From: an uncultured Oscillospiraceae bacterium
Lineage (GTDB): Bacteria; Bacillota; Clostridia; UBA1212; UBA1255
DNA: 64,000 bases
Assembly: GCA_902472555.1 (NCBI GenBank)
Contig: CABROF010000001.1
Coordinates: forward strand, 32,025-96,024
Reading direction: 5' to 3'
In this document: in pieces, positions 18,884 to 32,881 of the stretch
Numbering within the stretch: the stretch's first letter is position 1
Layout: each line of letters begins with the position of its first letter
Made by a program: the position numbers and the translations under genes
Notes under the pieces: model-generated
Told to the model about the DNA's origin: nothing
Database searches by the model: none
The model's input: the letters and a program-made list of their open reading frames with translations, nothing else

Positions 18884-21463
18884 ATGAAGCACAGAAAAGA
18901 TTTTTTTCATATTTTAATTCGTTGTATGCTTGCCTTTCTTTTTATTTATACAGCCGCCGGCTGTACCGTACAATCCCTGCCGCAGCATACAGCGCCTGCT
19001 GCTTCCGCTTCAGATCGGACGGATTTTCCTGTGCAAACGACTGCTGAAGCCTCGCCTGCCCAAACACCTTCCTCGGAAACGCCCAATCCGGCACACTTTT
19101 TAAAAATCAGTGAACTAATGGCTTCCAACACCTTAGGAATTACAGACCGTCAGGGCGTCAGGCAGGATTGGATTGAACTTACAAATTACGGCAGCGTTCC
19201 CATCCATCTCAAGGGCTTTTCCCTGAGTCTTTCTCCCGGAAGCGTAAAATGGACATTTCCCGACGTATGGATAGCGCCGCAGGCATCCCTGCTGCTATTT
19301 GCTTCCGGCGCAGGCACCTATACCGGCGAGCTGCACATTGCCTTCAAATTGAGCAAGGAGAGCAAAACCGTCCTGCTTGCAGATCCGGAAGGCCTTTTGA
19401 TTGACAGCGTTACATATCCTGATCTAAAAGACGATTATGCCTATGCACGGACCGGGGCTCAGCCCACGGATCCCTTTGCGGTCACAAACATTGTCTCGCC
19501 GGGATATCCAAATACGGTTGCCGGTGTGGAGGCATATTTTGCAGAAGCAGAGGCCGGGGGTAAAATGCTGGTGATCAACGAAGCGGTAAGCTCTAATTTT
19601 CAGCAGCTGGAACAAAACGGAGCATATTATGACTGGATTGAAATTAAAAATGTCACTTCTGCTTCCGTCAATCTAAAAAATTATTATTTATCCGACAGCA
19701 AAAAGGATCCGTTGAAATGGAATATGCCGGATCAAATACTCGCGCCCGGTGAAATCTGTGTTTTTCTCGCCTCCGGGGATGAAAGTCTGACTGGCGGTTC
19801 CTATGTACATACAAATTTTAAGCTGGACGGAATATCAGAATGCCTATATCTATCAGACGCTGCCAAAAATTTGCTTGACGGTGTGCTGCTAACGGACATT
19901 CCCTATGGCGGAAGCTGCGGCAGAATGCCCGGGAAAGCCGGCTTCTTTTACTTTGAAAAAGCAACGCCCGGCGAAGAAAACACTGCCGGGAAACGAGAAA
20001 TCTCCCATACGCCGGTCTCATTGACGCCGGATGGTATTTACGACGAATCCGCCGCACCGATTCTTGTTACGCTTTCCGGAGAAGGCAGGATTTATTATAC
20101 GCTTGACGGAAAGGAACCGACGGATAAGAGCCTGCTCTATACAGGTCCCTTCACGATCTCCGAAACCACAGTGGTCAGAGCGGTTTCCATCGCGCCGGAT
20201 AAAATCAAAAGTGACGTATACACAGCCGGCTTTTTTATAAACGAAGGCCATACGCTTCCGATTCTGAGCGTTGTATTGGATCCGGACGATCTCTGGAGCG
20301 ATGAAACGGGGATTTATGTAAAAGGGCCGGATGCCTCTCCGGAGGCACCCTATTACGGAGCAAATTATTATAAAGACTGGGAGCGAAAGGCCAGTGCCGC
20401 ATTTTATGAAAAAGGCGGAAGCGGATTTACCATTGACTGCGGTCTCAAAATCGCGGGCGGAGGAAGCCGGTATCTCGAAAAGAAATCATTCAGCCTGAAA
20501 TTCAAATCCCGTTACGGCAGCGAATTTCTTGAATATCCCATATTTGAAAATCCAGATGCACCAGCCCGCTTCAAAACGCTCATGATTCGCTGCGGCGAAG
20601 ATTATACCCGTTCTATTTTCCGCGATGAATTTCTCACCGCACTGGCCGCAGACGGCATGCAGAATCTCGAGGTGCAGAATTACAGGTTCTGTGTTCTGTA
20701 TCTGAACGGCGCGTATTGGGGAATCTATGCCATCCGGGAAAAAGTCGACGAAGACTTCGTGGTTTCCCGTCACCCAGAGACGGACCCGGAAACGGTCTCT
20801 CTCATCCGCAGCAGCGCAGATGTGGAGTTCGGCAGCGGAAAAGCTTATGATGCGCTGTGCCAATACGTAAAAAAACATGATATGTCCCTGCCTGAAAGCT
20901 ACCGTTATCTCGCGGATCGTGTCAATGTCGACAGCATGATCGAATGGCTGGTGGCGGAAGTCTACTCCGGTAATAAGGATTTGGCCAACATCCGCTGCTT
21001 TACGGCAGCAGACCCTGCAGGCAAGCAAACGCTGAAATGGTACTGGGTATTTTATGACCTTGACTGGGGATATATTCATCACGTCGCGCCCTTTTATTTT
21101 CTGCAGGGCAGCGCCGAGGACTCCCGCTCCGTTTTATTCCGCGCGCTTCTGAAAAGTGAAGAAGGCCGCGACCGATTCCTTACGCAGCTGGCATATCACC
21201 TGAGAAATACATTTTCAGAGCAGAAGGCGCTGCAGAAAATCGCGCTGCTGGAATCACTGCTGGAGCCTGAGGTTCTGCGCAACTGCCGCCGATGGGATGT
21301 GCCCGTAGAAAATTACAGGCAAAGCGTTGCGGCGCTAAAAGCCTACGCCTCCTCCGGGCGAGAGCAAGAGGTGATTGATGCAGCAGTCCTTTATTTCAAT
21401 CTTTCCGCCGCAGAGCAGCAGCATTATTTCGGAATGATCTCTGATGAACGCCTGCGCAAATAG
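18884..21463 (+). CDS. Secreted CotH-family (atypical kinase-like) protein with two N-terminal lamin-tail domains (LTD).
   Basis: Signal peptide. Two LTD motifs (ISELMASNTLGITDRQGVRQDWIELTNYGSVPIHLKGFSLS and VINEAVSSNFQQLEQNGAYYDWIEIKNVTSASVNLKNYYLSD). The C-terminal region has the CotH-like RFCVLYLNGAYWGIYAIREKVDEDFV ... NKDLANIRCF. Confidence 0.65.
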   Translation: MKHRKDFFHILIRCMLAFLFIYTAAGCTVQSLPQHTAPAASASDRTDFPVQTTAEASPAQTPSSETPNPAHFLKISELMASNTLGITDRQGVRQDWIELTNYGSVPIHLKGFSLSLSPGSVKWTFPDVWIAPQASLLLFASGAGTYTGELHIAFKLSKESKTVLLADPEGLLIDSVTYPDLKDDYAYARTGAQPTDPFAVTNIVSPGYPNTVAGVEAYFAEAEAGGKMLVINEAVSSNFQQLEQNGAYYDWIEIKNVTSASVNLKNYYLSDSKKDPLKWNMPDQILAPGEICVFLASGDESLTGGSYVHTNFKLDGISECLYLSDAAKNLLDGVLLTDIPYGGSCGRMPGKAGFFYFEKATPGEENTAGKREISHTPVSLTPDGIYDESAAPILVTLSGEGRIYYTLDGKEPTDKSLLYTGPFTISETTVVRAVSIAPDKIKSDVYTAGFFINEGHTLPILSVVLDPDDLWSDETGIYVKGPDASPEAPYYGANYYKDWERKASAAFYEKGGSGFTIDCGLKIAGGGSRYLEKKSFSLKFKSRYGSEFLEYPIFENPDAPARFKTLMIRCGEDYTRSIFRDEFLTALAADGMQNLEVQNYRFCVLYLNGAYWGIYAIREKVDEDFVVSRHPETDPETVSLIRSSADVEFGSGKAYDALCQYVKKHDMSLPESYRYLADRVNVDSMIEWLVAEVYSGNKDLANIRCFTAADPAGKQTLKWYWVFYDLDWGYIHHVAPFYFLQGSAEDSRSVLFRALLKSEEGRDRFLTQLAYHLRNTFSEQKALQKIALLESLLEPEVLRNCRRWDVPVENYRQSVAALKAYASSGREQEVIDAAVLYFNLSAAEQQHYFGMISDERLRK

Positions 21464-21605
21464 CTTAGCTTCGGCAGCTGAGCCGCGAAAAAGGCGCCTG
21501 CCTGTTTCGCAGGCCAATACTTCCTTGCGATAAACCGGCGGCTGTCATCCGGTAAATGGGGCTGTAAAAAAACGCGATAAAAGTAAAAATCGCACATGAT
21601 AAATT

Positions 21606-21640
21606 CCGGCCAAACCACGGTTTACCGTGAATTGGCCGGG
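21606..21640. terminator. Perfect hairpin CCGGCCAAACCACGG-TTT-ACCGTGAATTGGCCGG between convergent genes. It is nested inside a longer roughly 20-bp inverted repeat (21557..21577 / 21658..21677).
   Basis: Read directly from the sequence. It lies between the CotH gene (+) and the 21699 gene (-). Confidence 0.4.
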
Positions 21641-21698
21641 AAGCTTTTGGGAAAAGGCGTTTTTTACAGCCCCATCGTCGTATGTCTGGCCAGCCCCT

Positions 21699-22619
21699 TT
21701 ATTCGCGTCTCATTCTGCGTTTCGTTGCAGACACCGCACCTGCCAATACTGCGGCTGCACAGATACAAGCACAAAGGAAATCCGCATCACCGGTCTCTAC
21801 AGGTTCCAATCCGCCCTTTACGATAAACGGCTGTTCTTCCACTACCGTGCCGGCTTTGTTTCTCATCACAACCTTATATGCACCTGCCGGAATATCAATA
21901 TAAGGCTTCACCTCGGCATTGTCCGGAGTAGGACAATAAAAATCAAACAAATCCAGAGCAACGCCTGGCTGAATAACCGTATAATCCTGCGTGGTCTCCG
22001 TAAGCGTAAAGTATGCATAATAAATACCTGCATTCTGACCAGGCACACTGTCTTTTAAGTAAAGCACTACGGAATCTGTGTCTCCGCCGGTTGCCGTCAC
22101 CATAATCGGTTCCCCTTCTTCATAAACTTCTTTGTTCAGCGATAAAGAACGTTCAATGCCGGCAGTAATCGTAAATTCTTTTGTGGCTAAAACAGAACCA
22201 CTTGTGGCTCTGACTACAATTTTATAATTTCCCTCTTTCAGAGCCTTTGTTTCGGCATCAATAAATGGTTTCACATCATTCGGATTCTCCGGAGTCGGAC
22301 AAGCCCACTTTAAAAGATCGCTGGCAACGCCATTGTCCAGCTTTGTATACGATTCCCTTCCTGTTATGGTATTATCAAAACAAGCATAATAAATACCACC
22401 GTTCACGCCGGGCGTCTTATCCTTTTGGTAGACCACCACATAATCTGTATCTTCACCTGTAGCGGTAACCAGAATTGTTTCTCCTACTTCATAAACGGTT
22501 TTATCCGTCGACAAGGAACGTTCCGCTTCTGCCCGCACCTGTATCACAGGCAGAAAAGACAGCAGCAAACAAACCGCCAATAAACCTAAAATACCCTTAC
22601 TCACATATTTCATATACAC
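21699..22619 (-). CDS. Cell-surface protein with two copies of a roughly 130-aa repeat domain, a signal peptide and a C-terminal hydrophobic anchor with a basic tail.
   Basis: The internal repeat is [SLS-DKTVYEVGETILVTATGEDTDYVVVYQKD..PG.NGGIYYA.F] x2. The C-terminus is FLCACICAAAVLAGAVSATKRRMRRE. Confidence 0.5.
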   Translation of the reverse strand: MYMKYVSKGILGLLAVCLLLSFLPVIQVRAEAERSLSTDKTVYEVGETILVTATGEDTDYVVVYQKDKTPGVNGGIYYACFDNTITGRESYTKLDNGVASDLLKWACPTPENPNDVKPFIDAETKALKEGNYKIVVRATSGSVLATKEFTITAGIERSLSLNKEVYEEGEPIMVTATGGDTDSVVLYLKDSVPGQNAGIYYAYFTLTETTQDYTVIQPGVALDLFDFYCPTPDNAEVKPYIDIPAGAYKVVMRNKAGTVVEEQPFIVKGGLEPVETGDADFLCACICAAAVLAGAVSATKRRMRRE

Positions 22620-22633
22620 CCAACCTTTCTTAA

Positions 22634-23560
22634 TTATTTTCTCTTTTTAAGAACAACTATCACAATTACTGCAATTACAGCAGCCGCAACTACGCCTACA
22701 ATCATCCAGACAGCAGTATTGGTACCGTCTTGAGAAGAATTGGCTGGTTTTGTTGTGGGATCAGTCGTATCATCCGGTTCTGCAGTCACAATCTTTGCCG
22801 TTGTCGGAGTCGGGCTCGGCGCTTCCGTTGCATTCGGGTCTTCTGTTGCATTGGGATCCTTTGTCGGAGTCGCCAGCCGCCAGACAACCTCAAATGCCTG
22901 CTCTGCCACCACCGTACCGCTGTTATCCCGTATGACAATCTTGTACGCGCCTTCCGGTATATCTATATACGGAGCTACCTGCGGATTTGAGGGGGTGGCG
23001 CAGAACCAGTCAAATACATCGATCGGTACATGATTTTCAATTAAAGTGTAGTCTGCTCTTGCTCCTATTGACGTATCAAACGCAGCATAATAAATACCGG
23101 CATCCTGACCCGGAATATAATCCTGTGGATAGAGACATATATAGTCCGTCGCTTCCCCGGATGCCGTAACCAGAATCGCCTCTCCCTCTTCATAAACCGT
23201 CTTATCCAAGGATAAAGAACGTCCCGTGCCTGCTTCCGGATCTGTTCCCGCTGCCGTTCCCGGCGTCATATCCTGTACTGCGAAAGCCCCCCCCTTTTCC
23301 ACCGTCTTTATTGATGTGTCATTCGTAAAAACTGCGTAATAAATTCCTGAATTTTGTCCCGGGACATCGTCTTCTCTGTAAAAGCCAACAAAATCCGTAT
23401 CTTCACCTGTGGCGGTAACCAGAATTGTTTCTCCTACTTCATAAACGGTTTTATCTGCTGACAGGGAACGTTCCGCTTCTGCCTGCACTTTTACAGGCAG
23501 AAAAGACAGCATTACACAGACCGCCAGCAAACCAAAAATACATCTGAATCCATTTCTCAT
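22634..23560 (-). CDS. Paralogous cell-surface repeat protein. It has two copies of the same domain, then a Thr/Pro-rich stalk, then a C-terminal transmembrane anchor.
   Basis: The same repeat signature (SLSADKTVYEVGETILVTATGEDTDFV ... SLSLDKTVYEEGEAILVTASGEATDYICLY ... AGIYYAAF). Stalk PTKDPNATEDPNATEAPSPTPTT. Anchor MIVGVVAAAVIAVIVIVVLKKRK. Confidence 0.5.
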   Translation of the reverse strand: MRNGFRCIFGLLAVCVMLSFLPVKVQAEAERSLSADKTVYEVGETILVTATGEDTDFVGFYREDDVPGQNSGIYYAVFTNDTSIKTVEKGGAFAVQDMTPGTAAGTDPEAGTGRSLSLDKTVYEEGEAILVTASGEATDYICLYPQDYIPGQDAGIYYAAFDTSIGARADYTLIENHVPIDVFDWFCATPSNPQVAPYIDIPEGAYKIVIRDNSGTVVAEQAFEVVWRLATPTKDPNATEDPNATEAPSPTPTTAKIVTAEPDDTTDPTTKPANSSQDGTNTAVWMIVGVVAAAVIAVIVIVVLKKRK

Positions 23561-23585
23561 AACTCTCCGCTCCTTTTTATATAAA

Positions 23586-25835
23586 TTATTTTACAATCCA
23601 TACCGGATTGGAAAACGCAAAACCGCCCATATAATCCGAATCACCGAATAACGAATGCTGCGTGTACACTTCTACTCTGTAAAACTCATTTTCCGCCACA
23701 TCAATTTTTTGACTGTATTCAAACAGATGTGCCCCCTTGGATCCTTTTGCATCCTCATAAAGCACCTTTACTTCCCGATTCTTATAAGCGGTATCCACAT
23801 CGCCGCCTATTGTATATCGATATAAGACCACCTTTTTAATTGTCGAATATTGGTCCGCAGCTCTGATTTTCACAGTTGCCGTGCCGTTTTCCGGAAGCAG
23901 CAAAGACTGTCCGTTGCCGGCGCCGCTAATAGAAAAACGCAATTCCGGTCCGTTTGTTCCATAGAAGGTTCCATTCTTCAGCGCTTGAATGATGTTCTCT
24001 TCATTCAATTCATTGATCAGCACCGCGTTCCCTGCCGTACCCACAATCTGATCGGTATGACCGTCGGTATTGCAAATGCCATAGTAATGCTGCTCACCTT
24101 TCAGATTATAACGATCCCACCACTCAAACGCATCATCCGTCCATTCTGAATGCCTACGATAATTATGTCCATCCTCATTGTAGACCTCAATTCCGGTAAA
24201 ACCCGTGTAATAATCCACTTTCGTCGGATCCGTTCCCACTCCGGGCCAAATCCAGCGGCCGTCTCCAGTGTAAAACGGATGCGCAATATAGCACAGCCCG
24301 CCTTCCTCAATAATCGTATCCATAATTTCCTGCCATTCCCCTACTGTGGGCCGGATCGCCGCCATGATTTCCCACATACCGCCAGTATATCCCGCTGGAT
24401 GCATGTAAGTCGTATTATATTCCAGCATGTGGCCATAGTTGGTCGTAATTTCATTTCCCACAATCGGAATAAAGTCCGTAAGGCCTTTTGCCGCAGCCCG
24501 GGCAAACGCTTTATTGCCGGGATTGCAGTTGTGTTCCGTAGTCAGAATCCACGCATGGCCTTTGTGATACACGGAAAGAAAGTTATCTTTTAAAGGGCTG
24601 TGGCCGTCGCTTAGCGTACTGTGCGTATGCGCATCTCCCACATAATAGCCTTTGCCATCGGCAATCAGGCGGAAGGATTCTTGAGATAAAATTTTATTGC
24701 TTTTTGTCAGTAATTGTACCGAACAAAGTCCGCTGCCGCCTTCCTGTATAGTGAAATCATATTTGAAATCAGCCGATCCCTGGGCTTCAACCACAATCGC
24801 CAGCTGATCCGCATGGGCATTATGCGTCATCAAAAGCGGCCGCTCTAACTTTACTTTAAACGTTCTATCAGTATCTGTGTGGTTTTCCAGTGTACCGGTA
24901 ATAGACATGGTGTTTCCTGCCGCTGCCTCTCCTGTCAGAACTACATCTCGCATAATATAGCTTTCCACCTCGGCAGACCCACGGTTTTCAAGCGTTTGTG
25001 GATCCGTTATTACATTTTTAAAGCTCTGATAAGCTTGCTGAACCTCCTGTTCAGTCAAAGCACCGCTGTAAAGCGCTGCCTTCGTATAGATAGATGCGCC
25101 TGCCGCATAATCCGTGATTGTTTTGCCGGTCCCGATATCAGCACCGATTACATAGATAAAAGGAGACTCGCCGAATGTCAGACCCGATACATGCAATGTA
25201 TTCTGCAACTGGCCATTCACATAAAACAGGATCTGATTTTTCTCGGCATCATAAACACCCATCAGATGATACAATTCTCCAATCCGTATTTTTTCCTTTC
25301 CGAAAACCGTTCTGTAATCTGTATCAAAATGTTGGAATTTAAAGAAACCGTTATCAAACCAAAGCCCAAACATCCCGTTCTGCGTGGAAGAAAAAATTCC
25401 GATTTGCCGATTGCCCGGCTCCTCTGTATACTGTACTGCCGCTTCAATACTGTAGCCGCCGGACAGTGTCTTCTGAAATGCTTCCTCTTCGGCATAAGCA
25501 GATAAATCGACGCCCATGGCCTGTTTATCCTCTCCCGTATTCCGGTATCCCGGAATTGTCGCAGTTATGCCCTGATGTGTTACTGAGACAGGCTCCACCA
25601 TACCGCTGCCTTCTGTTCGGAACGAAGCATTGTGCGCCAGATCCGCATAGGTCCCGTCACGATAGAAGCACACATCCGCAATGACATGATTCTGATATAA
25701 TGAAAACCCCTCTTTTACGGCAGAATCCGGAATCGCCGGAGGCCCGCTTTCAGCAGGATCCGCAGTTTCTGGACTGCATGCATATAAACTCAGGAAAACC
25801 ATCAAAAGCAACCCGATGATACCTTTTTGTTTCAT
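23586..25835 (-). CDS. Secreted lipoprotein with a PHP-family metal-dependent phosphoesterase domain and a LamG/concanavalin-like domain.
   Basis: Lipobox LSLYACS. PHP signature GDAHTHSTLSDGHSPLKDNF ... ILTTEHN. The preceding region (GIFSSTQNGMFGLWFDNGFFKFQHF ... LYHLMGVYD) resembles LamG. Confidence 0.55.
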   Translation of the reverse strand: MKQKGIIGLLLMVFLSLYACSPETADPAESGPPAIPDSAVKEGFSLYQNHVIADVCFYRDGTYADLAHNASFRTEGSGMVEPVSVTHQGITATIPGYRNTGEDKQAMGVDLSAYAEEEAFQKTLSGGYSIEAAVQYTEEPGNRQIGIFSSTQNGMFGLWFDNGFFKFQHFDTDYRTVFGKEKIRIGELYHLMGVYDAEKNQILFYVNGQLQNTLHVSGLTFGESPFIYVIGADIGTGKTITDYAAGASIYTKAALYSGALTEQEVQQAYQSFKNVITDPQTLENRGSAEVESYIMRDVVLTGEAAAGNTMSITGTLENHTDTDRTFKVKLERPLLMTHNAHADQLAIVVEAQGSADFKYDFTIQEGGSGLCSVQLLTKSNKILSQESFRLIADGKGYYVGDAHTHSTLSDGHSPLKDNFLSVYHKGHAWILTTEHNCNPGNKAFARAAAKGLTDFIPIVGNEITTNYGHMLEYNTTYMHPAGYTGGMWEIMAAIRPTVGEWQEIMDTIIEEGGLCYIAHPFYTGDGRWIWPGVGTDPTKVDYYTGFTGIEVYNEDGHNYRRHSEWTDDAFEWWDRYNLKGEQHYYGICNTDGHTDQIVGTAGNAVLINELNEENIIQALKNGTFYGTNGPELRFSISGAGNGQSLLLPENGTATVKIRAADQYSTIKKVVLYRYTIGGDVDTAYKNREVKVLYEDAKGSKGAHLFEYSQKIDVAENEFYRVEVYTQHSLFGDSDYMGGFAFSNPVWIVK

Positions 25836-25854
25836 GTCTTTCTCCTCCTCTTAA

Positions 25855-28179
25855 TTAATCTATCAATTCTCCGTAAACTTCCATTTCCGCAATTTCAACA
25901 CAATACCCGGCGGATGCCGTCCCCGAACGAGTCAGCTTTGTTGCGGCGAATTGAACATAACGTGCTTGTATGGGCTCAATTTCTAATGTACGTACATCCT
26001 GACGCTGCGGAGTATTATCATGCTTCATCTGTTTGACGGCTGTCCACTGAACGCCGTCTTGGGAAACCCGGATTTCATAATCATCCGGAAAAACATTTAC
26101 ACCATTCCATACCTTTTGCGGCGTCAGTACAACACGTTCTACTTTATAACTTCCCAACAGATCGATTATGATCCATTCTTCTGCGTTTTCGGTGGAATTT
26201 CGATTCATTCCGCTGGACCAGACTTTAGATGTACCATCGTTAATATAGGTATAATGGCAGTTCCAATCCGGCTGATCCGTACTGGAGGAATAACTTAAAA
26301 CCGGTTTATGCAATGCAATATTTTCGCCATCTGTATAGGCTGGCGGTTCATAAGAAGTAGCAATATGGTCTTCAATAGAACCGTCATCATGATAAACCGC
26401 GATCTCACCGATTTCACAGAAGCAATTCCCCTCCGATAGCAAAAAATCCGTTACCACCAGACGCATATAGCGTGCCTGTATCGCATGAAAACGAAATACC
26501 GGTACTTTGGTACGGTCCAGGATATCATTTTCTTCTCTCACAACCTCCGTCCATTCCCGGCCATCTGCCGAAGTCAGAATCAGAAAGGATTTCGGAAAAT
26601 AAGCCCCGCAGCGAACACCATTGCCCATCGGATACAAGTCCACGCGATTCAGCGTCTCTATATCACCGAAATCCAATGTGATATATTGTGCCCTTCCGTC
26701 CGTGGTTATCAGTTTTGCACCGTTTCCATCTGTTCCTTCTCCGTCATGCACATCACATAAGAAAGCAGTACCGTCCCCTGCCGCGCTGCTGGCAAAGAGA
26801 CGGGCAGAGACAGCTAAATTTCGTGATCTTTCATGACTATCTTCAACTAAATTCCCGTCAATCACCTGAAATACCGCACCGTCGCCGGCTGCCAGCTGCA
26901 GCGTCAGCACCCCGTTTTCCACCGGCGCATCCACCAGCGCTCCGGTACGCTCGTCAACCATCTTCAGCCGAAGCGCTCCTACATCCAGACGGATCTGCTG
27001 TGTTTTTCTAAAATCTTTGTTTACAATCATGAAATACGAATTCTCGTCGCTGCGCGGCTGAATAACAGATAAGATAACATCTGTTTTATCGATTGCTTGT
27101 ATCGGGAAGTCATTCGGAATTTTTTTATAAGCACCGGGAGTTCTTATCATACTGTGGTAAACTGCCACTGCATCGCCGGAAGCCAGATACGTCCCCAGAC
27201 GATGGATTTTTTTGTTGATTTCACACACTGCGAAAAAAAGATCCGTCGGTTCATAATCCCTATCAAAAATAGCATTGCTGTATGTACCTTCCCCGCTGGG
27301 GGGCGTTCCCCATGTAAAAAACTTAAGTTCTTTTACACCGTACGCCAATGCCGCCATCATATTGTAACGCAGATCAGCGGCAGTCGGTCTCCGATAATGA
27401 TCCTGATATCCGACAGACTGTACGTATACCGCTGTGTTTTTTCCGGTAGCCAGCGCGGCGCGGCGCAGATCATCATAATTTCTGAATAATTCAAGCTCAT
27501 TAACGCCGCCGTTTAAATCAAAGCAATAGGTATCCAAAGACAACGTCCCGCCGTAAGGAATCAAGCTTCCAAAATCGGTTAGACGTTTATAATAGGTTCC
27601 CTCCGGATAACATCCTCTCGGCAGGAAGTTGATATTGATATACGAATCCGGACAGACAGAACGCAGTAAATTTTCCACATCGGCATAAACATTCGGATTG
27701 ACCGGCTCATCCACCACATAAAAGCCGGCAAATCCCGGTAAATCCTTATATTCTTCAGCAATCTCCAGCAGCGCTTCATCGGTTTGTTCAAGGCACGTCT
27801 GAATGCGGTAATCTCTGGAATAAATACGCAGACCGTGTTCCGCAGCTTCTGCCATAATCTGCTTGTACTTATCTGCCGTATGGCCTTCCGCGACCCATAC
27901 AGGATCCACATATATATGAGAAACCACATCAATTTCCGCTTCATTCATATAAGCAAATTGTCTTTTCCGTACCTCTTCGTCGTGCAGTGGTACCAGATAT
28001 GCATTAATAATAATATTGTCCCGCGTAATCGGCTGTACATTGTTCATTGGCAGCATATAGTCCTCCTTTTTGTCCTGTTCAGGCTGATTGCTCCGGCGGC
28101 ACCCCGGCAGTATGAAAAGCAGCAGTAATGAGAAAAGTATGATTACAGTCAGCTGCCATCTCCTGAATATTGGATTCAT
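25855..28179 (-). CDS. Secreted glycoside-hydrolase-like TIM-barrel protein with two C-terminal F5/8 type C (discoidin) domains.
   Basis: Signal peptide. The N-terminal half has FAGFYVVDEP-type GH-like motifs. Two discoidin-like blocks (...AQYITLDFGDIETLNRVDLYP... and ...EEWIIIDLLGSYKVERVVLTPQ...). Confidence 0.5.
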   Translation of the reverse strand: MNPIFRRWQLTVIILFSLLLLFILPGCRRSNQPEQDKKEDYMLPMNNVQPITRDNIIINAYLVPLHDEEVRKRQFAYMNEAEIDVVSHIYVDPVWVAEGHTADKYKQIMAEAAEHGLRIYSRDYRIQTCLEQTDEALLEIAEEYKDLPGFAGFYVVDEPVNPNVYADVENLLRSVCPDSYININFLPRGCYPEGTYYKRLTDFGSLIPYGGTLSLDTYCFDLNGGVNELELFRNYDDLRRAALATGKNTAVYVQSVGYQDHYRRPTAADLRYNMMAALAYGVKELKFFTWGTPPSGEGTYSNAIFDRDYEPTDLFFAVCEINKKIHRLGTYLASGDAVAVYHSMIRTPGAYKKIPNDFPIQAIDKTDVILSVIQPRSDENSYFMIVNKDFRKTQQIRLDVGALRLKMVDERTGALVDAPVENGVLTLQLAAGDGAVFQVIDGNLVEDSHERSRNLAVSARLFASSAAGDGTAFLCDVHDGEGTDGNGAKLITTDGRAQYITLDFGDIETLNRVDLYPMGNGVRCGAYFPKSFLILTSADGREWTEVVREENDILDRTKVPVFRFHAIQARYMRLVVTDFLLSEGNCFCEIGEIAVYHDDGSIEDHIATSYEPPAYTDGENIALHKPVLSYSSSTDQPDWNCHYTYINDGTSKVWSSGMNRNSTENAEEWIIIDLLGSYKVERVVLTPQKVWNGVNVFPDDYEIRVSQDGVQWTAVKQMKHDNTPQRQDVRTLEIEPIQARYVQFAATKLTRSGTASAGYCVEIAEMEVYGELID

Positions 28180-28455
28180 TGCAAATAAAACCTCCCTGCT
28201 TTATAAGTTTCACTGATCATACGTTAACACAGCCGAACACTTTTCTGCTATTTCTAAAAAGACCACTTTTGTCATTTTTTCGACTTTTTGGCTGATTACA
28301 GAATCCTTCAGCCTTCCTCTGCATAAAACTATACATTTGAGTATGATACAGGTTACACCGCTGAAAACACGGATTGATTCGGCTGCGGAATACATCTTGA
28401 ATATTTTGTAAATCTGCGTTAAACTCTCTGCATACAGTAGAGTTCAGGAGGGTAG

Positions 28456-28478
28456 CGTGAAAAATAAAATTTTTCACG
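28456..28478. promoter_or_regulatory. Perfect 10-3-10 palindrome CGTGAAAAAT-AAA-ATTTTTCACG, 30 bp upstream of the merR-like gene. Candidate operator.
   Basis: Read directly from the sequence. No T-tract follows, so it is not a typical terminator. Confidence 0.35.
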
Positions 28479-28506
28479 CGGAAATTGCGAAAGGATGGAG
28501 ATGATT

Positions 28507-29352
28507 ATGAAATCTGAATTGCTATCTATCGGCAAGATGGCAAAGCTGAACCGGCTTTCTATCCCAACGCTGAGATTGTATGACGAAAAGGGACTTCTGA
28601 AGCCGCGCTACATTGACCCCTGCAGCGGATACAGATATTATGATATTCATCAAAATGCACGTCTGGATATGATTGCATACATGAAGGAATTAGGTATGAG
28701 CCTGTCTGAAATTGCAGATGTATTTCAAAAAGAAGATCTCACCCGAATCGAGGATATCCTTGCCCAAAAGAATGAGCAGATTCACGAACAGATCCGCCGC
28801 TTGAAAGCCAGACATGATGCAGTAGAACGTGCAATTGTGTCTATTGAACGCTATCGGAAATCGCCGGCAACAGGCACGCTGTCACTGGAATATATTGACC
28901 GGCGCTGCATCTGGGGAATTCCATGTTCCTCTAATTTTTACAGCAGCGATATTTCCGGCTATGAAAAAATGCTGCTGGAACTTCGCCATTCCCTGGAGAA
29001 ACATGCATTTGAGCAGATTCATTCCTATAATATCGGCACATCGATTACCAAGGAAAATTTTATCAATGACCGCTTTATTGCAAACGAAATTTTCATTTTC
29101 ACCAATCGGCATGAGCAGAATGCCCAGGCAACACTGCAAACCATAGACAGCGGCATGTACGCGTGTATCTATCTGGATAATTATGATGATGAGATGGCTT
29201 ATGCACGGATGCTGAAAGATTATTGCGCACAAAATCATTATGATATTTCCGGCGATTATATCTGCGAAGTTATGACGGAATTCAACGTATTTGACAGCGA
29301 TCATCGCAGTATGTTCCTGAGACTGCAGGTTCCGGTAAGCTTTTTTAAATAA
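28507..29352 (+). CDS. MerR-family transcriptional regulator with a C-terminal GyrI-like effector-binding domain.
   Basis: N-terminal HTH LSIGKMAKLNRLSIPTLRLYDEKGLLKPRYIDPCSGYRYY and coiled-coil linker. Start ATG 28501 or 28507. Confidence 0.8.
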   Translation: MKSELLSIGKMAKLNRLSIPTLRLYDEKGLLKPRYIDPCSGYRYYDIHQNARLDMIAYMKELGMSLSEIADVFQKEDLTRIEDILAQKNEQIHEQIRRLKARHDAVERAIVSIERYRKSPATGTLSLEYIDRRCIWGIPCSSNFYSSDISGYEKMLLELRHSLEKHAFEQIHSYNIGTSITKENFINDRFIANEIFIFTNRHEQNAQATLQTIDSGMYACIYLDNYDDEMAYARMLKDYCAQNHYDISGDYICEVMTEFNVFDSDHRSMFLRLQVPVSFFK

Positions 29353-29429
29353 ATGTGCCATATACTTATGACGGCGCTGCCTTTCATCTGTGACCGAGGC
29401 ACCAAAGCCAATGTAAAATAATTTCCGAA

Positions 29430-29466
29430 AAACCCTTGACTCTCCTGCGGGCTGAGGGTTTAAACT
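29430..29466 (+). promoter_or_regulatory. MerR-type promoter: -35 TTGACT (29436..29441), 19-nt spacer, -10 TAAACT (29461..29466), with dyad AAACCCT / AGGGTTT (29430..29436 / 29455..29461).
   Basis: Read directly from the sequence. Over-long 19-bp spacers with dyad symmetry are the hallmark of promoters activated by MerR-family regulators. It sits between the merR-like gene and the downstream oxidoreductase gene. Confidence 0.45.
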
Positions 29467-29540
29467 ATTTCTATAAAATACCTGTTATCAAAATTGCGTC
29501 AGTACGCATAATGTATGCAGGAAAAAGAGGAGGTATTTCT

Positions 29541-30566
29541 ATGGAAAAAATTAAAGTCATTCAGTACGGCTGCGGTAAGATGTCCAAATATACCCTGCGG
29601 TACCTGTACGAACACGGCGCCCAAATTGTAGGCGCAATCGACGTAAACCCCGCGGTTGTGGGTATGGATGTCGGCGATTATGCGAATCTCGGTGTAAAAA
29701 CAGGGATCCTGATTTCCAGCGATGCGGACAGTGTCCTTGATGCGTGTGATGCGGATGTCGCCATTGTGACATTATTCAGCTTTATCGGCGATATCTATGA
29801 GCATGTGGAAAAATGCGTGTCCCGCGGAATCAACGTAATCACCACCTGCGAGGAAGCGATTTACCCCTGGACTACTTCCGCCGCACAGATCAATCGTCTG
29901 GATGCGCTGGCCAAAGAAAACAACTGCACGATCACAGGATCCGGTATGCAGGATATTTTCTGGATCAATATCGTCGCAATGGTCGCCAGCGGCTGCAACA
30001 AATTGACGAAGATTAAAGGGGCATACAGCTATAATGTAGAAGATTACGGTTTGGCACTGGCTGAGGCCCATGGATGCAATTTGACCAAAGAGGAGTTTGA
30101 AGCGAAAATCGCACATCCGGCGGAGTTTGAACCTTCCTATGCCTGGAACGCCAGCGAAGCGCTGTGCAACAAGCTCGGACTGACGATCAAATCCATTTCT
30201 CAAAAACATGTTCCCTACACCATTGATCACGACATTTACAGTGCTACGCTGGGGCAAACCATTAAAGCGGGCAAATGCATCGGGATGTCTGCCGTGGTGA
30301 CCATCGAAACCATGCAGGGCATCACGATTGAGGAAGAAACCATTGGCAAGGTATACGGCCCAGAGGACGGCGACATGTGTGACTGGTGGCTAACCGGTGA
30401 ACCGGATACGGAGTTTCATGTGGTCAAGCCGGCTACTGTTGAGCATACCTGTGCTACAATCGTAAACCGGATTCCCTCTCTGCTTACCGCACCGGCCGGT
30501 TATGTAACCTGCGATCAGCTGGAGCCGCACACATATCTGACTTATCCGATGGAGTACCATCTGTAA
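29541..30566 (+). CDS. NAD(P)-binding oxidoreductase of the DapB-like, amine dehydrogenase / 2,4-diaminopentanoate dehydrogenase family.
   Basis: Strong RBS AAGAGGAGG before ATG 29541. N-terminal Rossmann motif [33 protein letters not shown]. The architecture resembles DapB-fold amine dehydrogenases. Confidence 0.45.
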
Positions 30567-30718
30567 GCGATTCCTGCAGCGACAGTTCAGCCACGCGGTA
30601 TTTCCTTCTCCGGACTGCCGCGTGGTTTTTTTATATTGATCGGACGGAACGCGCTTCTATCGTTGTCAATGACCTTAGACAACGATTCCTGCCCCAGCCC
30701 TGTTTTCAAGGTGCCCAA

Positions 30719-32023
30719 TCAATCATTTTGTGATATGCCCTTCGATAAACATTGGTATCGATATCTCAATATACTACTTCCACATAGGATAAACGCAACA
30801 CCAATGATCAAAAGTGAAAATGTATTGTCCGCGGTGATTGGGTTCTTCCCATCCACTTCGATCGACCTAACGTCTGCCTTCCAATCTTCATATAAAGTTT
30901 TCGACATTAATGTAATAACAAATGGCTTGTTATCAAAAAGACCTTCTGTGGACGCTAAAACCTTTGCGGCATAAGTTCCCTGTTCTGAAAAAGACAAAGT
31001 TCCGTCACTATTTTCAATTCTTTCATAGTCGGCACTGCATTCTATTATTTGAAGTGAAGAGAATATAATATCTTTTTGGAAATACGTCTGCAACGCATCT
31101 TGCACGCTATACTCAGCAATCTGGGTATATAATAACGGATAATACATAAAATATTTATTTGGTCTTTCACTACGTTCGCCGGTATGTGATGGACAAAACA
31201 GATCGGCCAAGGAACCGCCGTTAATCCTCCAACCGTTTTCTGTATAGATAAAGGATACAGACAAAATTAACGGAACCAGAGCGCCTTGATACTTTTCAGA
31301 AGCGTTATCTAACCTAAGATAACCAAAAGCTTCGCGGGGGTCCCTTTTCTCCATCCAGCAGCCGGTTTGGTCATTGCTGCCGCCAACCTGCATGCTGTCG
31401 AAATTGGTTGGATAAATAATCGGTTGCCAATTCACAGGGGTGTTCTCTAAAAAATATGCTTTGCCTTCATGATTGGTCAGCATTCCCAGCATGTGACCGG
31501 TTCCGCGCCCGTGTTCAATTGCATATTGATAATAATTATCGGTATAAATAGTTTGGGCAAGTTCCTCCCAATACGCGTAATCCGTCATACCCTCTTTCGC
31601 TGGCAAATATTTTACGATATGCCCATTGCGTTCCAAAAAGACAGGTTCGCCACCTTGATCAATATAGGGGGACGCATCATGATAAACCAATTCAAACAGT
31701 TCGCAGGCTTTGGCGCATAACGCAATAATCTCCCCATCCGTAATGCTGTCTTCTGCGGCTTGAACCTTATTCAGTACGCTCACAAATATGGCGTTATCAA
31801 GGCTGCCATCAAATACAAAACCAATCGCCAGCATGTCTATCGCCGGCTGCGCCGTTATGATGGTTCTGTTGACTCTTTGCGCGACCGCTCCAGAAGACCG
31901 CACGCCCATCCGAATCAGCATACCCCAGAAGAGATAAAACTCATTTCCGATATGCGCAGACGGAATCCGGCTGCCGGTCTTATCGTCTTCTGGGTTAAGC
32001 TTACGCAGCGAGGCTGCTCCCAT
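30719..32023 (-). CDS. Hypothetical protein with a C-terminal transmembrane anchor. The true start is probably far downstream of 32023.
   Basis: Protein-like composition over most of its length, with a C-terminal hydrophobic segment LLIIGVAFILCGSSIL. Its first 90 or so codons overlap an IS481-type transposase fragment encoded on the opposite strand. The gene is therefore either shorter or truncated. Confidence 0.35.
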   Translation of the reverse strand: MGAASLRKLNPEDDKTGSRIPSAHIGNEFYLFWGMLIRMGVRSSGAVAQRVNRTIITAQPAIDMLAIGFVFDGSLDNAIFVSVLNKVQAAEDSITDGEIIALCAKACELFELVYHDASPYIDQGGEPVFLERNGHIVKYLPAKEGMTDYAYWEELAQTIYTDNYYQYAIEHGRGTGHMLGMLTNHEGKAYFLENTPVNWQPIIYPTNFDSMQVGGSNDQTGCWMEKRDPREAFGYLRLDNASEKYQGALVPLILSVSFIYTENGWRINGGSLADLFCPSHTGERSERPNKYFMYYPLLYTQIAEYSVQDALQTYFQKDIIFSSLQIIECSADYERIENSDGTLSFSEQGTYAAKVLASTEGLFDNKPFVITLMSKTLYEDWKADVRSIEVDGKNPITADNTFSLLIIGVAFILCGSSILRYRYQCLSKGISQND

Positions 32024-32065
32024 TCGATTTCAGGTCTTTACCGCCTCTTACGGAGACAGGCGTTG
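31760..32065 (+). mobile_element. IS481-family transposase N-terminal fragment (about 100 aa), truncated remnant.
   Basis: YGVIKAAIKYKTNRQHVYRRLRRYDGSVDSLRDRSRRPHAHPNQHTPEEIKLISDMRRRNPAAGLIVFWVKLTQRGCSHSISGLYRLLRRQ carries the family hallmark DRSRRPH.PN.TPEEI ... RNP.(W)G ... YR.L(K/R)RQ. Similarity then breaks off into junk. Confidence 0.5.
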
Positions 32066-32655
32066 ATGGCTCTTTCTATTCTTTTCAGGACTTTGCTGCC
32101 TCAGCTGAAGAGCTACAGCCGCAGAGACTACAATGCCTTTCCTATGCGTCGTTCAAGCAGTTCGAAGAGTTCGCGGATTGTTTTGGCGGGCAGATCCAAA
32201 AGGCGGCAGTTATTGACCTTTCCCTGCGCAATAATTAATTTGGCCTTATTCAGTTCTAAGACGATTTTACGGAAGGTATATTTGTGTTCATCCAGGTAAG
32301 CTTACAGCTTGTTCTGTATGTAGGACAGGACAATGAAACATGACATTTCCCTCGCTGAGCATATACTGTGCAGCCGTCAATATTTCTTTATGATTCTCGG
32401 GAAAGTATTTTTTAATAACTTGGAAACACCCAGCTTTGCTGCTACCTCTTCAAAAACGCGATTCACTCTGCAGTCATATATTCCCGTGGTATTGTATAGC
32501 CTAATTATACCATTTCGCATACAAAAAAATGCAAGCGCTTTTTTCTTGAATTTGCTCTTGTTTTCTTATTTTTCTCAATGTATAGGGTAATTTTCGGAGA
32601 ATTCAGGATTCAGGTTCTATGAAATCGCTTACCTGAAATCAAGTCTTAAAACGCA

Positions 32656-32690
32656 CAAAAACCCGTTGTTTAACGGGTTTTTGTGCCTGC
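32656..32690. terminator. Hairpin AAAAACCCGTTGTTTAACGGGTTTTT downstream of tRNA-Pro. Bidirectional rho-independent terminator.
   Basis: GC-rich stem flanked by A and T runs on both sides. Confidence 0.5.
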
Positions 32691-32711
32691 ATCTATTTTG
32701 TCCTGCAGAGA

Positions 32712-32788
32712 TGGTCGGGATGACAAGATTTGAACTTGCGGCCTCTGCGTCCCGAACGCAGCGCTCTACCAAACTGAGCCACATCCCG
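32712..32788 (-). tRNA. tRNA-Pro (anticodon CGG).
   Basis: The minus-strand sequence CGGGATGTGGCTCAGTTTGGTAGAGCGCTGCGTTCGGGACGCAGAGGCCGCAAGTTCAAATCTTGTCATCCCGACCA folds as a cloverleaf. The acceptor stem is CGGGATG/CATCCCG. The anticodon stem CTGCG/CGCAG carries the loop TTCGGGA. A T-loop TTCAAAT and a 3' CCA are present. Confidence 0.85.
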
Positions 32789-32881
32789 AAAACGTTGTTT
32801 ATACTACCATGTTCCGGGAGCGGCGTCAATAGGTAAAATAAAATTTTTTTCATTTAATCGACTACAATCGGCAAAACGGCA

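Follow-up and report, generated by a model that had tools for sequence, protein, structure and literature searches.

An immobile IS481-type insertion-sequence remnant joined to a truncated surface-protein gene in an uncultured Oscillospiraceae bacterium

The stretch of DNA analyzed here, 64,000 nucleotides from an uncultured Oscillospiraceae bacterium, is referred to as the window. On its minus strand lies the body of a 5'-truncated surface-protein gene (30719..31765). The gene is followed on the right by two adjoining pieces of an IS481-type insertion sequence (IS) on the plus strand, an orphan spacer, and an intact tRNA-Pro gene on the minus strand. Together the two pieces form an immobile leftover of 387 bases that is fused to the truncated gene.

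Fragment A (31766..32072, plus strand) corresponds to element positions 153–459 and to approximately residues 12–116 of the transposase, which constitute its helix-turn-helix (HTH) and leucine-zipper part. A profile of 41 intact relatives (1064–1070 bp, TGTAGG...CCTACA) detected it by nhmmer with an E-value of 3.9e-72 and an envelope of 31759–32074. By tblastn it is 78% identical to a related 310-aa transposase over residues 12–116 (E 1e-50). The protein-level match begins at 31760, and the six-frame translation of plus-strand positions 31760–32074 reads LNLIQYAHKYG...YRLLRRQALMAL. This protein matches NF033577 'IS481 family transposase' (E 3.5e-16, profile positions 8–115 of 284) as well as the Pfam families HTH_28, HTH_32 and LZ_Tnp_IS481; its NF033577 score of 59.6 bits is far under the whole-protein cutoff of 224, because just a third of the protein remains. 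The original prediction of an IS481-family N-terminus at plus-strand 31760..32065 is thus borne out by NF033577, Pfam, tblastn and the nhmmer profile of the element, and the sequences quoted in it are present. The open frame of fragment A is unbroken over 105 codons, and heavy damage by point mutations is thus not apparent. At the nucleotide level it is at most 78% identical to the sampled relatives, which lineage rather than age may explain.

The stub was also said to degenerate after 32065, but a second, overlooked fragment follows at 32072–32152. This fragment B (plus strand) covers element positions 910–989 and was found by the same profile with an E-value of 2.9e-11. It encodes transposase residues 267–275 (SFYSFQDFA) and 277–292 (QLKSYSRRDYNAFPMR) with 89% and 81% identity, respectively (tblastn, E 2.7e-4), separated by a 1-nt insertion that causes one frameshift. 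Fragments A and B abut directly at 32072, so 450 nt with the DDE/rve core have been deleted. The IS profile has only these two matches on both strands of all 64 kb, and no other copy of the element is found in the window.

The window copy retains 36% of the element length. Element positions 460–909, encoding transposase residues 117–266, are missing from the window by both tblastn and nhmmer; the rve domain, located at residues 134–245 in an intact relative, falls within this deleted part. Element positions 1–152 and 990–1064 have no nhmmer match anywhere in the window, and no trace of the final 75 nt, which contain the right inverted repeat, was detected (the ungapped alignment is 25% identical, as in random sequence). 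Terminal inverted repeats (TGTAGGATTACA... / ...GACAAACCTACA) were sought around the stub, and the best candidates are within the window background; none is significant and both ends of the element are missing. Lacking the two inverted repeats as well as the DDE catalytic core, the fragment can neither transpose nor be mobilised.

The intact relatives, whose ends were defined from the 41 intact copies, are about 1.06 kb long and have terminal inverted repeats starting with TGT and one transposase of 307–310 aa with HTH and rve domains. In total, 80 intact copies encoding a protein of this length were found (loci L005–L084); they represent a related lineage without a name that is common in human-gut metagenomes. 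They score 210–221 bits on NF033577, slightly below the NCBI equivalog cutoff of 224, whereas their scores for other IS families do not exceed 79 bits. The IS481 family is reported to make target duplications of 2–15 bp, mostly 6 bp (PMC10045372), whereas 39 of the 41 intact copies from metagenomes are without a flanking duplication. The window fragment resembles the family in that it encodes the HTH/leucine-zipper region of the N-terminus and part of the C-terminal region, and differs from its elements in lacking the inverted repeats and the DDE domain. A family of stand-alone HTH proteins was our first reading, as the best 120 of 591 matches were all 110–186 aa long. It was rejected in view of their heterogeneous C-termini, their location mostly on very short contigs, and the 80 intact copies; the short homologues most likely represent frameshifted copies and fragments at contig ends.

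The IS fragment affects the reading of the neighboring gene. The annotated minus-strand ORF of 434 aa (30719–32023) shares 88 codons with the stub, in agreement with the overlap of about 90 codons originally pointed out. In an exhaustive HMMER search of 1.8 billion proteins this ORF has two disjoint classes of matches. Homologues of its body start at query residues 79–98. The other matches are confined to residues 2–89 in 85 of 87 cases, and 82 of these align with the IS consensus on its minus strand. The N-terminus is thus not conserved as protein in homologues, its matches being nearly all antisense IS translations. Judging from these alignments, the first 86–88 residues of the 434-aa protein are false: residues 1–86 (31766..32023, minus strand) are the codon-aligned antisense of fragment A. 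In this IS481-type family, the codon-aligned antisense frame is open by nature. The frame carries stops in all 41 intact elements, and in the six inspected the last two antisense stops are at codons equivalent to the junction.

The remaining part of the ORF (residues 87–434 and the stop codon) is the body of the surface-protein gene. Four homologues (P0122, P0123, P0124 and P0135) have signal peptides by N-terminal hydropathy, located 20–25 residues ahead of the point, at about residue 79–89, where their alignment with the window ORF begins. By this comparison, the window gene has lost its N-terminal Sec signal peptide, with IS-antisense sequence in its place and at most VQA kept. Its C-terminus (NPITADN...LLIIGVAFILCGSSIL RYRYQ) consists of NPITADN, a hydrophobic helix and a basic tail; it scores 18.9 bits against NF058670 (cutoff 32), and the AF2 model (pLDDT 68.5) places a terminal helix at residues 307–339. 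The complete gene would have encoded a secreted protein with a probable wall or membrane anchor. The closest fold is that of IseA/YoeB of Bacillus subtilis (PDB 8wt4 chain A), an inhibitor of DL-endopeptidases, at 12% sequence identity and on a model of moderate confidence. Unlike IseA/YoeB, the window protein carries a second domain of the NTF2/cystatin-like type and a probable C-terminal anchor, and it has no signal peptide. The gene is a member of a rare family of secreted proteins, possibly IseA-like by the modeled fold, which elsewhere is found in unrelated contexts (those of P0122 are short and not syntenic).

The same arrangement was observed in all ten loci compared, drawn from 17 contigs of different metagenome samples, at 99.5–100% identity. 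Exact-protein look-ups returned only strains with this arrangement at 99.5% identity or more, and on these ten loci it is fixed in the species. The gene body is an uninterrupted 348-codon frame in every strain. Its polymorphisms (three synonymous, three non-synonymous, and one stop four codons from the end) are too few to separate a young pseudogene from a selected gene. The gene has probably been inactivated in this species. A search for relatives lacking the insertion, using a contig scan with the neighboring transglutaminase, returned a 28%-identical Rhodanobacter locus only, and neither these searches nor the look-ups yielded a relative in which the site is empty or the gene intact.

Between the IS fragment and the tRNA gene lies an orphan spacer (32153..32652) with three minus-strand pieces (32520–32377, 32380–32288 and 32298–32135), an 85-aa plus-strand ORF, and no identifiable gene, RNA or repeat; no Rfam family was found in it. 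The three pieces had been placed at 32060..32480 on the minus strand and taken for possible remains of another HTH-containing transposase. The quoted sequences are there, at positions extending slightly beyond that range. As to a second transposase, searches with the pieces, both singly and concatenated, gave no homologue among 5.8 billion proteins or in Pfam, NCBIfam, PHROGs, plasmid and phage DNA, the fetched loci and the remainder of the window. Visual inspection suggested a likeness of FEEVAAKLGVSKLLKNTFPR to FDDFANQLKVYNRRDYNNFPMR, the C-terminus of the transposase, and of TGTAGGACAGG, at 32319, to an IS end. This candidate was rejected, as neither tblastn nor the nucleotide profile gave a minus-strand match and the IR-like matches are at the window background (14 for 32319; 24 at about 32250 vs 23 elsewhere). 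The longest stop-free stretches in 32153–32711 are 88, 62 and 53 codons, compared with a simulated longest of 76 ± 19; the observed longest was reached in 24% of simulations, hence the open frames are no longer than expected by chance. The codon score is 0.175 for piece 3 (YLDEHKYTFRKIVLELNKAKLIIAQGKVNNCRLLDLPAKTIRELFELLERRIG), 0.04–0.06 for pieces 1 and 2, and −0.14 for the plus-strand ORF, while real genes have 0.26 ± 0.13. The last six or so codons of piece 3 are the antisense of IS fragment B. The spacer piece with gene-like codon usage may be a relic of an orphan gene.

The tRNA-Pro gene (anticodon CGG; 32712..32788, minus strand) is intact according to ARAGORN and Rfam (RF00005, 68.3 bits) and is the sole tRNA in the window. 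A promoter scan yielded a promoter-like site upstream of it at 32829–32801. Directly 3' of it is a perfect 15-bp inverted repeat with a 4-nt loop (32653..32686; 100% complementary in the repeat search), which, by its position, is likely the tRNA terminator; a terminator scan match at 32674–32689 overlaps only its right arm.

The explanation that we favor, with a probability of roughly 0.85, is that an IS481-type element was cut to 387 nt in situ by three deletions and now extends the frame of the neighboring gene in antisense. This in-situ history is a reconstruction, as are the order and mechanism of the deletions. An element of about 1064 bp with a 310-aa HTH and DDE transposase would have been inserted at the 5' end of the minus-strand gene or a short distance upstream of it, in the opposite orientation to the gene. 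One deletion would have taken the first 152 nt of the element (the left inverted repeat, leader and codons 1–11) along with the promoter, ribosome-binding site and about 20 signal-peptide codons of the gene, creating the junction 31765/31766. Another would have removed the internal 450 nt with the DDE core (junction at 32072), and a third would have cut away the final 75 nt with the right inverted repeat, beyond about 32152. The left junction is in frame and would have removed the stops that end the antisense frame in intact elements. With the antisense frame open and an in-frame junction without stops, the gene body reads 86–88 codons further, to the ATG at 32023, and gene callers therefore report a 434-aa chimera. 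The original prediction was that the 5' end of this ORF is probably wrong or that the gene was truncated by the insertion. The 5' end is indeed not native, as the antisense matches and the missing signal peptide indicate. Simple insertion was rejected, since the 5' end of the gene was not found on the other side of the element: six-frame translation revealed no signal-peptide-like minus-strand frame to the right of the IS fragment. A deletion junction, at which the left IS end and the gene 5' end were lost together, is therefore preferred. The surface-protein gene would then be a young pseudogene.

A different mode of arrival is conceivable, though unlikely: the region of approximately 30630–32700, comprising the truncated surface gene, the IS fragment and the orphan spacer with relics of a minus-strand gene, could be the leftover of foreign DNA integrated at the tRNA 3' end, with the IS fragment arriving with it. 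The segment adjoins the tRNA 3' end, the surface-gene family is rare and scattered over unrelated contexts, and piece 3 of the spacer has a gene-like codon score. The GC content is lower in the gene (0.36–0.46) and in 32250–32700 (0.36–0.38) than in the flanks (0.48–0.54), in a segment of only about 2 kb and with spacers being usually AT-rich. As low-GC, orphan, decayed DNA beside a tRNA 3' end, the region resembles tRNA-linked genomic islands, but an integrase, an att-type direct repeat and cargo genes are all lacking. Scans for integrase or recombinase domains were negative both in eight flanking ORFs (Pfam), which instead encode glycoside hydrolases, a MerR protein, an oxidoreductase and a transglutaminase/alpha-E/ATP-grasp set, and in the ORFs of 30600–32700 (Pfam and NCBIfam). 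The 3' end of the tRNA is not repeated: its 27-mer, at up to three mismatches across the window, matches the tRNA itself only, and its 14-mers, at up to one mismatch, have no match in 20001–32680 (12.7 kb). Phage or plasmid similarity and homologues of the supposed relic gene are likewise absent, and IS481-type elements have no known preference for tRNA genes. The tRNA-targeted integration hotspot suggested at the outset thus finds no support in the integrase and repeat searches. Such an arrival would be compatible with the preferred explanation of the IS fragment and differs from it solely in how the DNA came in.

Two further readings assign a function to the remnant. It is improbable that the IS antisense supplies the start codon and N-terminal segment, and perhaps the promoter, of the surface gene, the 434-aa ORF or a shorter form from M35, M39 or M64 being a real expressed protein. 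In each of the ten loci the two parts are fused in frame, with 434 open codons, the gene body has no disabling mutation, residues 1–88 have a codon score of 0.21, within the real-gene range, and about 25 residues ahead of the VQA|A site there is a patch of moderate hydrophobicity (AIDMLAIGFVF). However, this patch contains acidic residues and lacks the canonical n-h-c layout of a signal peptide, the maximum hydropathy of the extension being 2.2 vs 2.8–3.9 in the four homologues. None of the candidate starts M1, M35, M39 and M64 has a Shine-Dalgarno sequence (2–4/6), though 8 of 10 neighboring genes checked have strong ones (5–6/6), and the promoter scan revealed no minus-strand promoter-like site between 32024 and 32700. 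The open antisense frame comes with the IS family and is not in itself a sign of selection here, an in-frame junction has a prior of one in three, and the strains are too alike to test constraint. That the antisense of a dead transposase fragment was recruited as the 5' coding region, possibly a substitute export or anchoring segment, of an IseA-like protein and fixed in the species is very doubtful; if true, N-terminal coding sequence would here have arisen de novo, in nature, from an IS antisense frame. Most improbable of all is the expression of the plus-strand ORF of 179 aa (31760..32299, TTG start in the mechanical ORF list) as a truncated HTH protein, such as an inhibitor of related IS copies at other sites of the genome, on the model of OrfA/InsA-type products of other IS families. 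The HTH frame is intact over its 105 codons and 78% identical to active-looking relatives, the fragment has zero polymorphisms among strains, and a weak promoter-like site (9/12) is found at 31700–31729, 30 nt upstream of the TTG. Yet the number of promoter-like sites in the region, seven, is as expected from shuffled sequence (5.4 ± 2.5), the TTG has no Shine-Dalgarno sequence (3/6), and the codon score is −0.06 in the fragment's own frame and −0.21 in the tail. The first 11 transposase residues are gone, along with the start of the HTH_28 domain (profile positions 1–7). The ORF consists of fragment A, nine junk residues, that portion of fragment B which is in frame, and about 50 non-homologous residues; its C-terminal 60 or so residues are out-of-frame or non-homologous, and conservation ends after residue ~106 in the alignment with 17 homologues. 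There is also no other copy of the IS in the window. The 179-aa ORF is probably not a gene.

The whole feature is ordinary genome decay and has no bearing on any open biological question. It matters chiefly for annotation: the 434-aa (or 430-aa) protein that was deposited from the examined contigs is a chimera, and antisense translation of this IS481-type family likewise accounts for at least 82 of the representative 'proteins' in public sets.

In a six-frame translation of 31700-32620, which contains all strings quoted in the original prediction, the plus strand encodes LNLIQYAHKYGVIKAAIKYKTNRQHVYRRLRRYDGSVDSLRDRSRRPHAHPNQHTPEEIKLISDMRRRNPAAGLIVFWVKLTQRGCSHSISGLYRLLRRQALMAL from 31760 onward. 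The stub was correctly recognised there as a piece of an IS481-type transposase: it matches positions 8-115 of the 284 in the NCBIfam model NF033577, 'IS481 family transposase' (E 3.5e-16), and the Pfam families HTH_28, HTH_32 and LZ_Tnp_IS481. Protein search yielded 591 homologues, the best with 77-80% identity; at the nucleotide level the remnant is at best 78% identical to the sampled relatives. One stub homologue led to a frameshifted, otherwise complete copy (locus L003), from which we rebuilt a 310-aa transposase, and metagenome contigs scanned with it contained 80 loci with intact genes of 307-310 aa. The alignment of 41 of these loci with their flanks has a sharp onset of conservation at TGTAGGATTACA and its end at GACAAACCTACA, and thus the element measures 1064-1070 bp and has inverted repeats that begin with TGT. 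The intact transposases score 210-221 bits against NF033577 and at most 79 for any other IS family, and their rve (DDE) domain occupies residues 134-245. Target duplications of 2-15 bp are reported for the IS481 family (PMC10045372). In 39 of the 41 intact metagenome copies (from loci L005-L084) no flanking direct repeat of at least 4 nt is found beside the TGTAGG...CCTACA ends, which may reflect either chimeric assembly across repeats or a real trait of this IS lineage. The frameshifted copy (L003/L004, 4001-4932) lies between AAA_23/MazG-like genes and a SMODS/AGS-C nucleotidyltransferase and NUDIX pair, in what looks like a CBASS-type defence neighbourhood.

A nucleotide profile built from the 41 elements and run unfiltered on both strands of the entire 64-kb window gave exactly two matches, both on the plus strand: fragment A at 31766-32072 (element positions 153-459, E 3.9e-72) and fragment B at 32072-32152 (positions 910-989, E 2.9e-11). 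The original prediction held for the stub formed by fragment A and overlooked fragment B. The tblastn search is in agreement, aligning transposase residues 12-116 at 78% identity (E 1e-50), followed by 267-275 and 277-292, the last two being split by a 1-nt insertion. The final 75 nt of the element were not found next to the remnant (25% ungapped identity at all offsets, and a global alignment no better than shuffles), and a search of the surrounding region for sites resembling the element's inverted repeats gave no matches above the window background. The remnant comprises 387 of 1064 nt. Both inverted repeats are missing, as are the leader, codons 1-11 and the 450 nt encoding the catalytic core. 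The remnant is unable to transpose or to be mobilised.

The minus-strand ORF of 434 aa (30719-32023) overlaps the stub by 88 codons. A word-indexed search with this ORF retrieved nothing but the ORF itself; an exhaustive search with HMMER against 1.84 billion representatives produced two disjoint classes of matches. Homologues of the body, a surface-protein gene at 30719-31765, are few (P0122, P0123, P0124, P0125, P0135 and P0172), the 355-aa P0122 being 49% identical over query residues 79-421 and subject residues 10-344 (E 1e-98). Of the other 87 matches, 85 are confined to residues 2-89, and for 82 of these the alignment lies on the minus strand of the IS consensus. These 82 are antisense translations of IS copies called as proteins by gene callers, and the suspicion that the annotated 5' end is wrong is therefore borne out. 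In this IS family the codon-aligned antisense frame is open across much of the element and has been taken for a gene time and again; such translations account for at least 82 cluster representatives of the public protein set (among P0126-P0212; up to 274 aa).

Four of the body homologues (P0122, P0123, P0124 and P0135) have a typical N-terminal signal peptide, with MKK preceding a hydrophobic stretch, which ends 1-3 residues ahead of a conserved A-x-x-(I/V)-(S/T)-D-x-E segment. The counterpart in the window, AEDSITDGE, begins at residue 89-90, and of the signal peptide at most V87-Q88-A89 may survive (compare VNA in P0122). This places the junction between the gene and the IS at 31765/31766, exactly where the nucleotide profile alignment starts. 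No Shine-Dalgarno sequence is found at M1, M35, M39 or M64 (2-4 of 6 positions match), while 8 of 10 neighbouring genes checked have 5-6 of 6, and no promoter-like site is found on the minus strand in 32024-32700. The most hydrophobic 11-mer of the extension, AIDMLAIGFVF, scores 2.2 and includes an Asp, compared with 2.8-3.9 for the homologues' signal peptides. Simple insertion of the IS into the surface gene is rejected: six-frame translation did not reveal the missing 5' end of the gene to the right of the remnant, and hence the event was a deletion. Over the homologous stretch, the codon-aligned antisense frame contains stops in all 41 intact elements; in the six elements viewed it is largely open apart from these, the last two of which are at the codons equivalent to 31760-31770. 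The deletion junction would have taken out these last stops and by chance been in frame, which suffices to account for the long chimeric ORF without selection.

The original prediction also proposed a possible second transposase in three minus-strand pieces, which lie at 32520-32377, 32380-32288 and 32298-32135. This is unsupported, as the joined pieces have no homologue among 5.8 billion proteins even with E up to 10, and the pieces, single or joined, do not match Pfam, NCBIfam or PHROGs. The final six or so codons of piece 3 are antisense of fragment B. The spacer DNA (32153-32652) matches no plasmid or phage sequence, none of the 80-odd loci retrieved and no other part of the window, and contains no Rfam family. 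Its stop-free stretches of 88, 62 and 53 codons are as expected by chance under a composition-matched first-order Markov model (longest 76 +/- 19; 24% of simulations reach or exceed the observed value). On a codon-usage log-odds scale, with 30 long ORFs from the window as training set, piece 3 scores 0.175 and pieces 1 and 2 score 0.04-0.06 (real genes 0.26 +/- 0.13, off-frames -0.17 to -0.39); given its score, piece 3 could conceivably be a relic of an orphan gene. The top promoter-like site of the region (32340-32367, plus strand, ATGACA-16-TATACT, 10 of 12 positions) faces the likely tRNA terminator and has no plausible gene beyond it, and the 85-aa ORF enclosing it (32333-32590) is non-coding by its codon score of -0.14.

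The tRNA-Pro(CGG) gene (32712-32788, minus strand) is intact and is the sole tRNA gene of the window. It is preceded by a promoter-like site at 32829-32801, and a perfect 15-bp hairpin is found just beyond its 3' end (32653-32686). The suggested tRNA-targeted integration found no support, since no integrase domain was detected in the eight neighbouring ORFs scanned and no further copy of the tRNA 3' end was found elsewhere. No targeting of tRNA genes is known for IS481-type elements. The whole 2-kb segment from the oxidoreductase gene to tRNA-Pro may be of foreign origin; its low GC content (0.36-0.46 in the gene at 30750-31650 and in the spacer at 32250-32700, versus 0.48-0.54 in flanking genes) is compatible with this, as weak evidence. 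On one contig (L086, 8-358), P0122, which alone among the surface-gene homologues is full-length, is 1.3 kb away from a small ORF that faintly matches an ISL3-transposase HTH; this single contig hints that the surface-gene family is prone to mobile-element-rich spots.

Exact matches to the neighbouring gene's product were found in 17 contigs of different metagenomes and one NCBI assembly, and all 10 loci retrieved have the same arrangement with 99.5-100% identity; no relative free of the remnant turned up. The gene body has seven variable sites (three synonymous, three non-synonymous and one stop), the IS remnant has none, and one more lies at 32186, together too few to test constraint. The stop, a G>T change at 30732 in two strains (L090 and L095), truncates the product at codon 431 to 430 aa and is probably harmless because it follows the hydrophobic anchor and basic tail. 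The feature is real but ordinary: a doubly truncated, internally deleted, immobile IS481-type fragment, joined by deletion to a surface-protein gene devoid of its start, signal peptide and expression signals.
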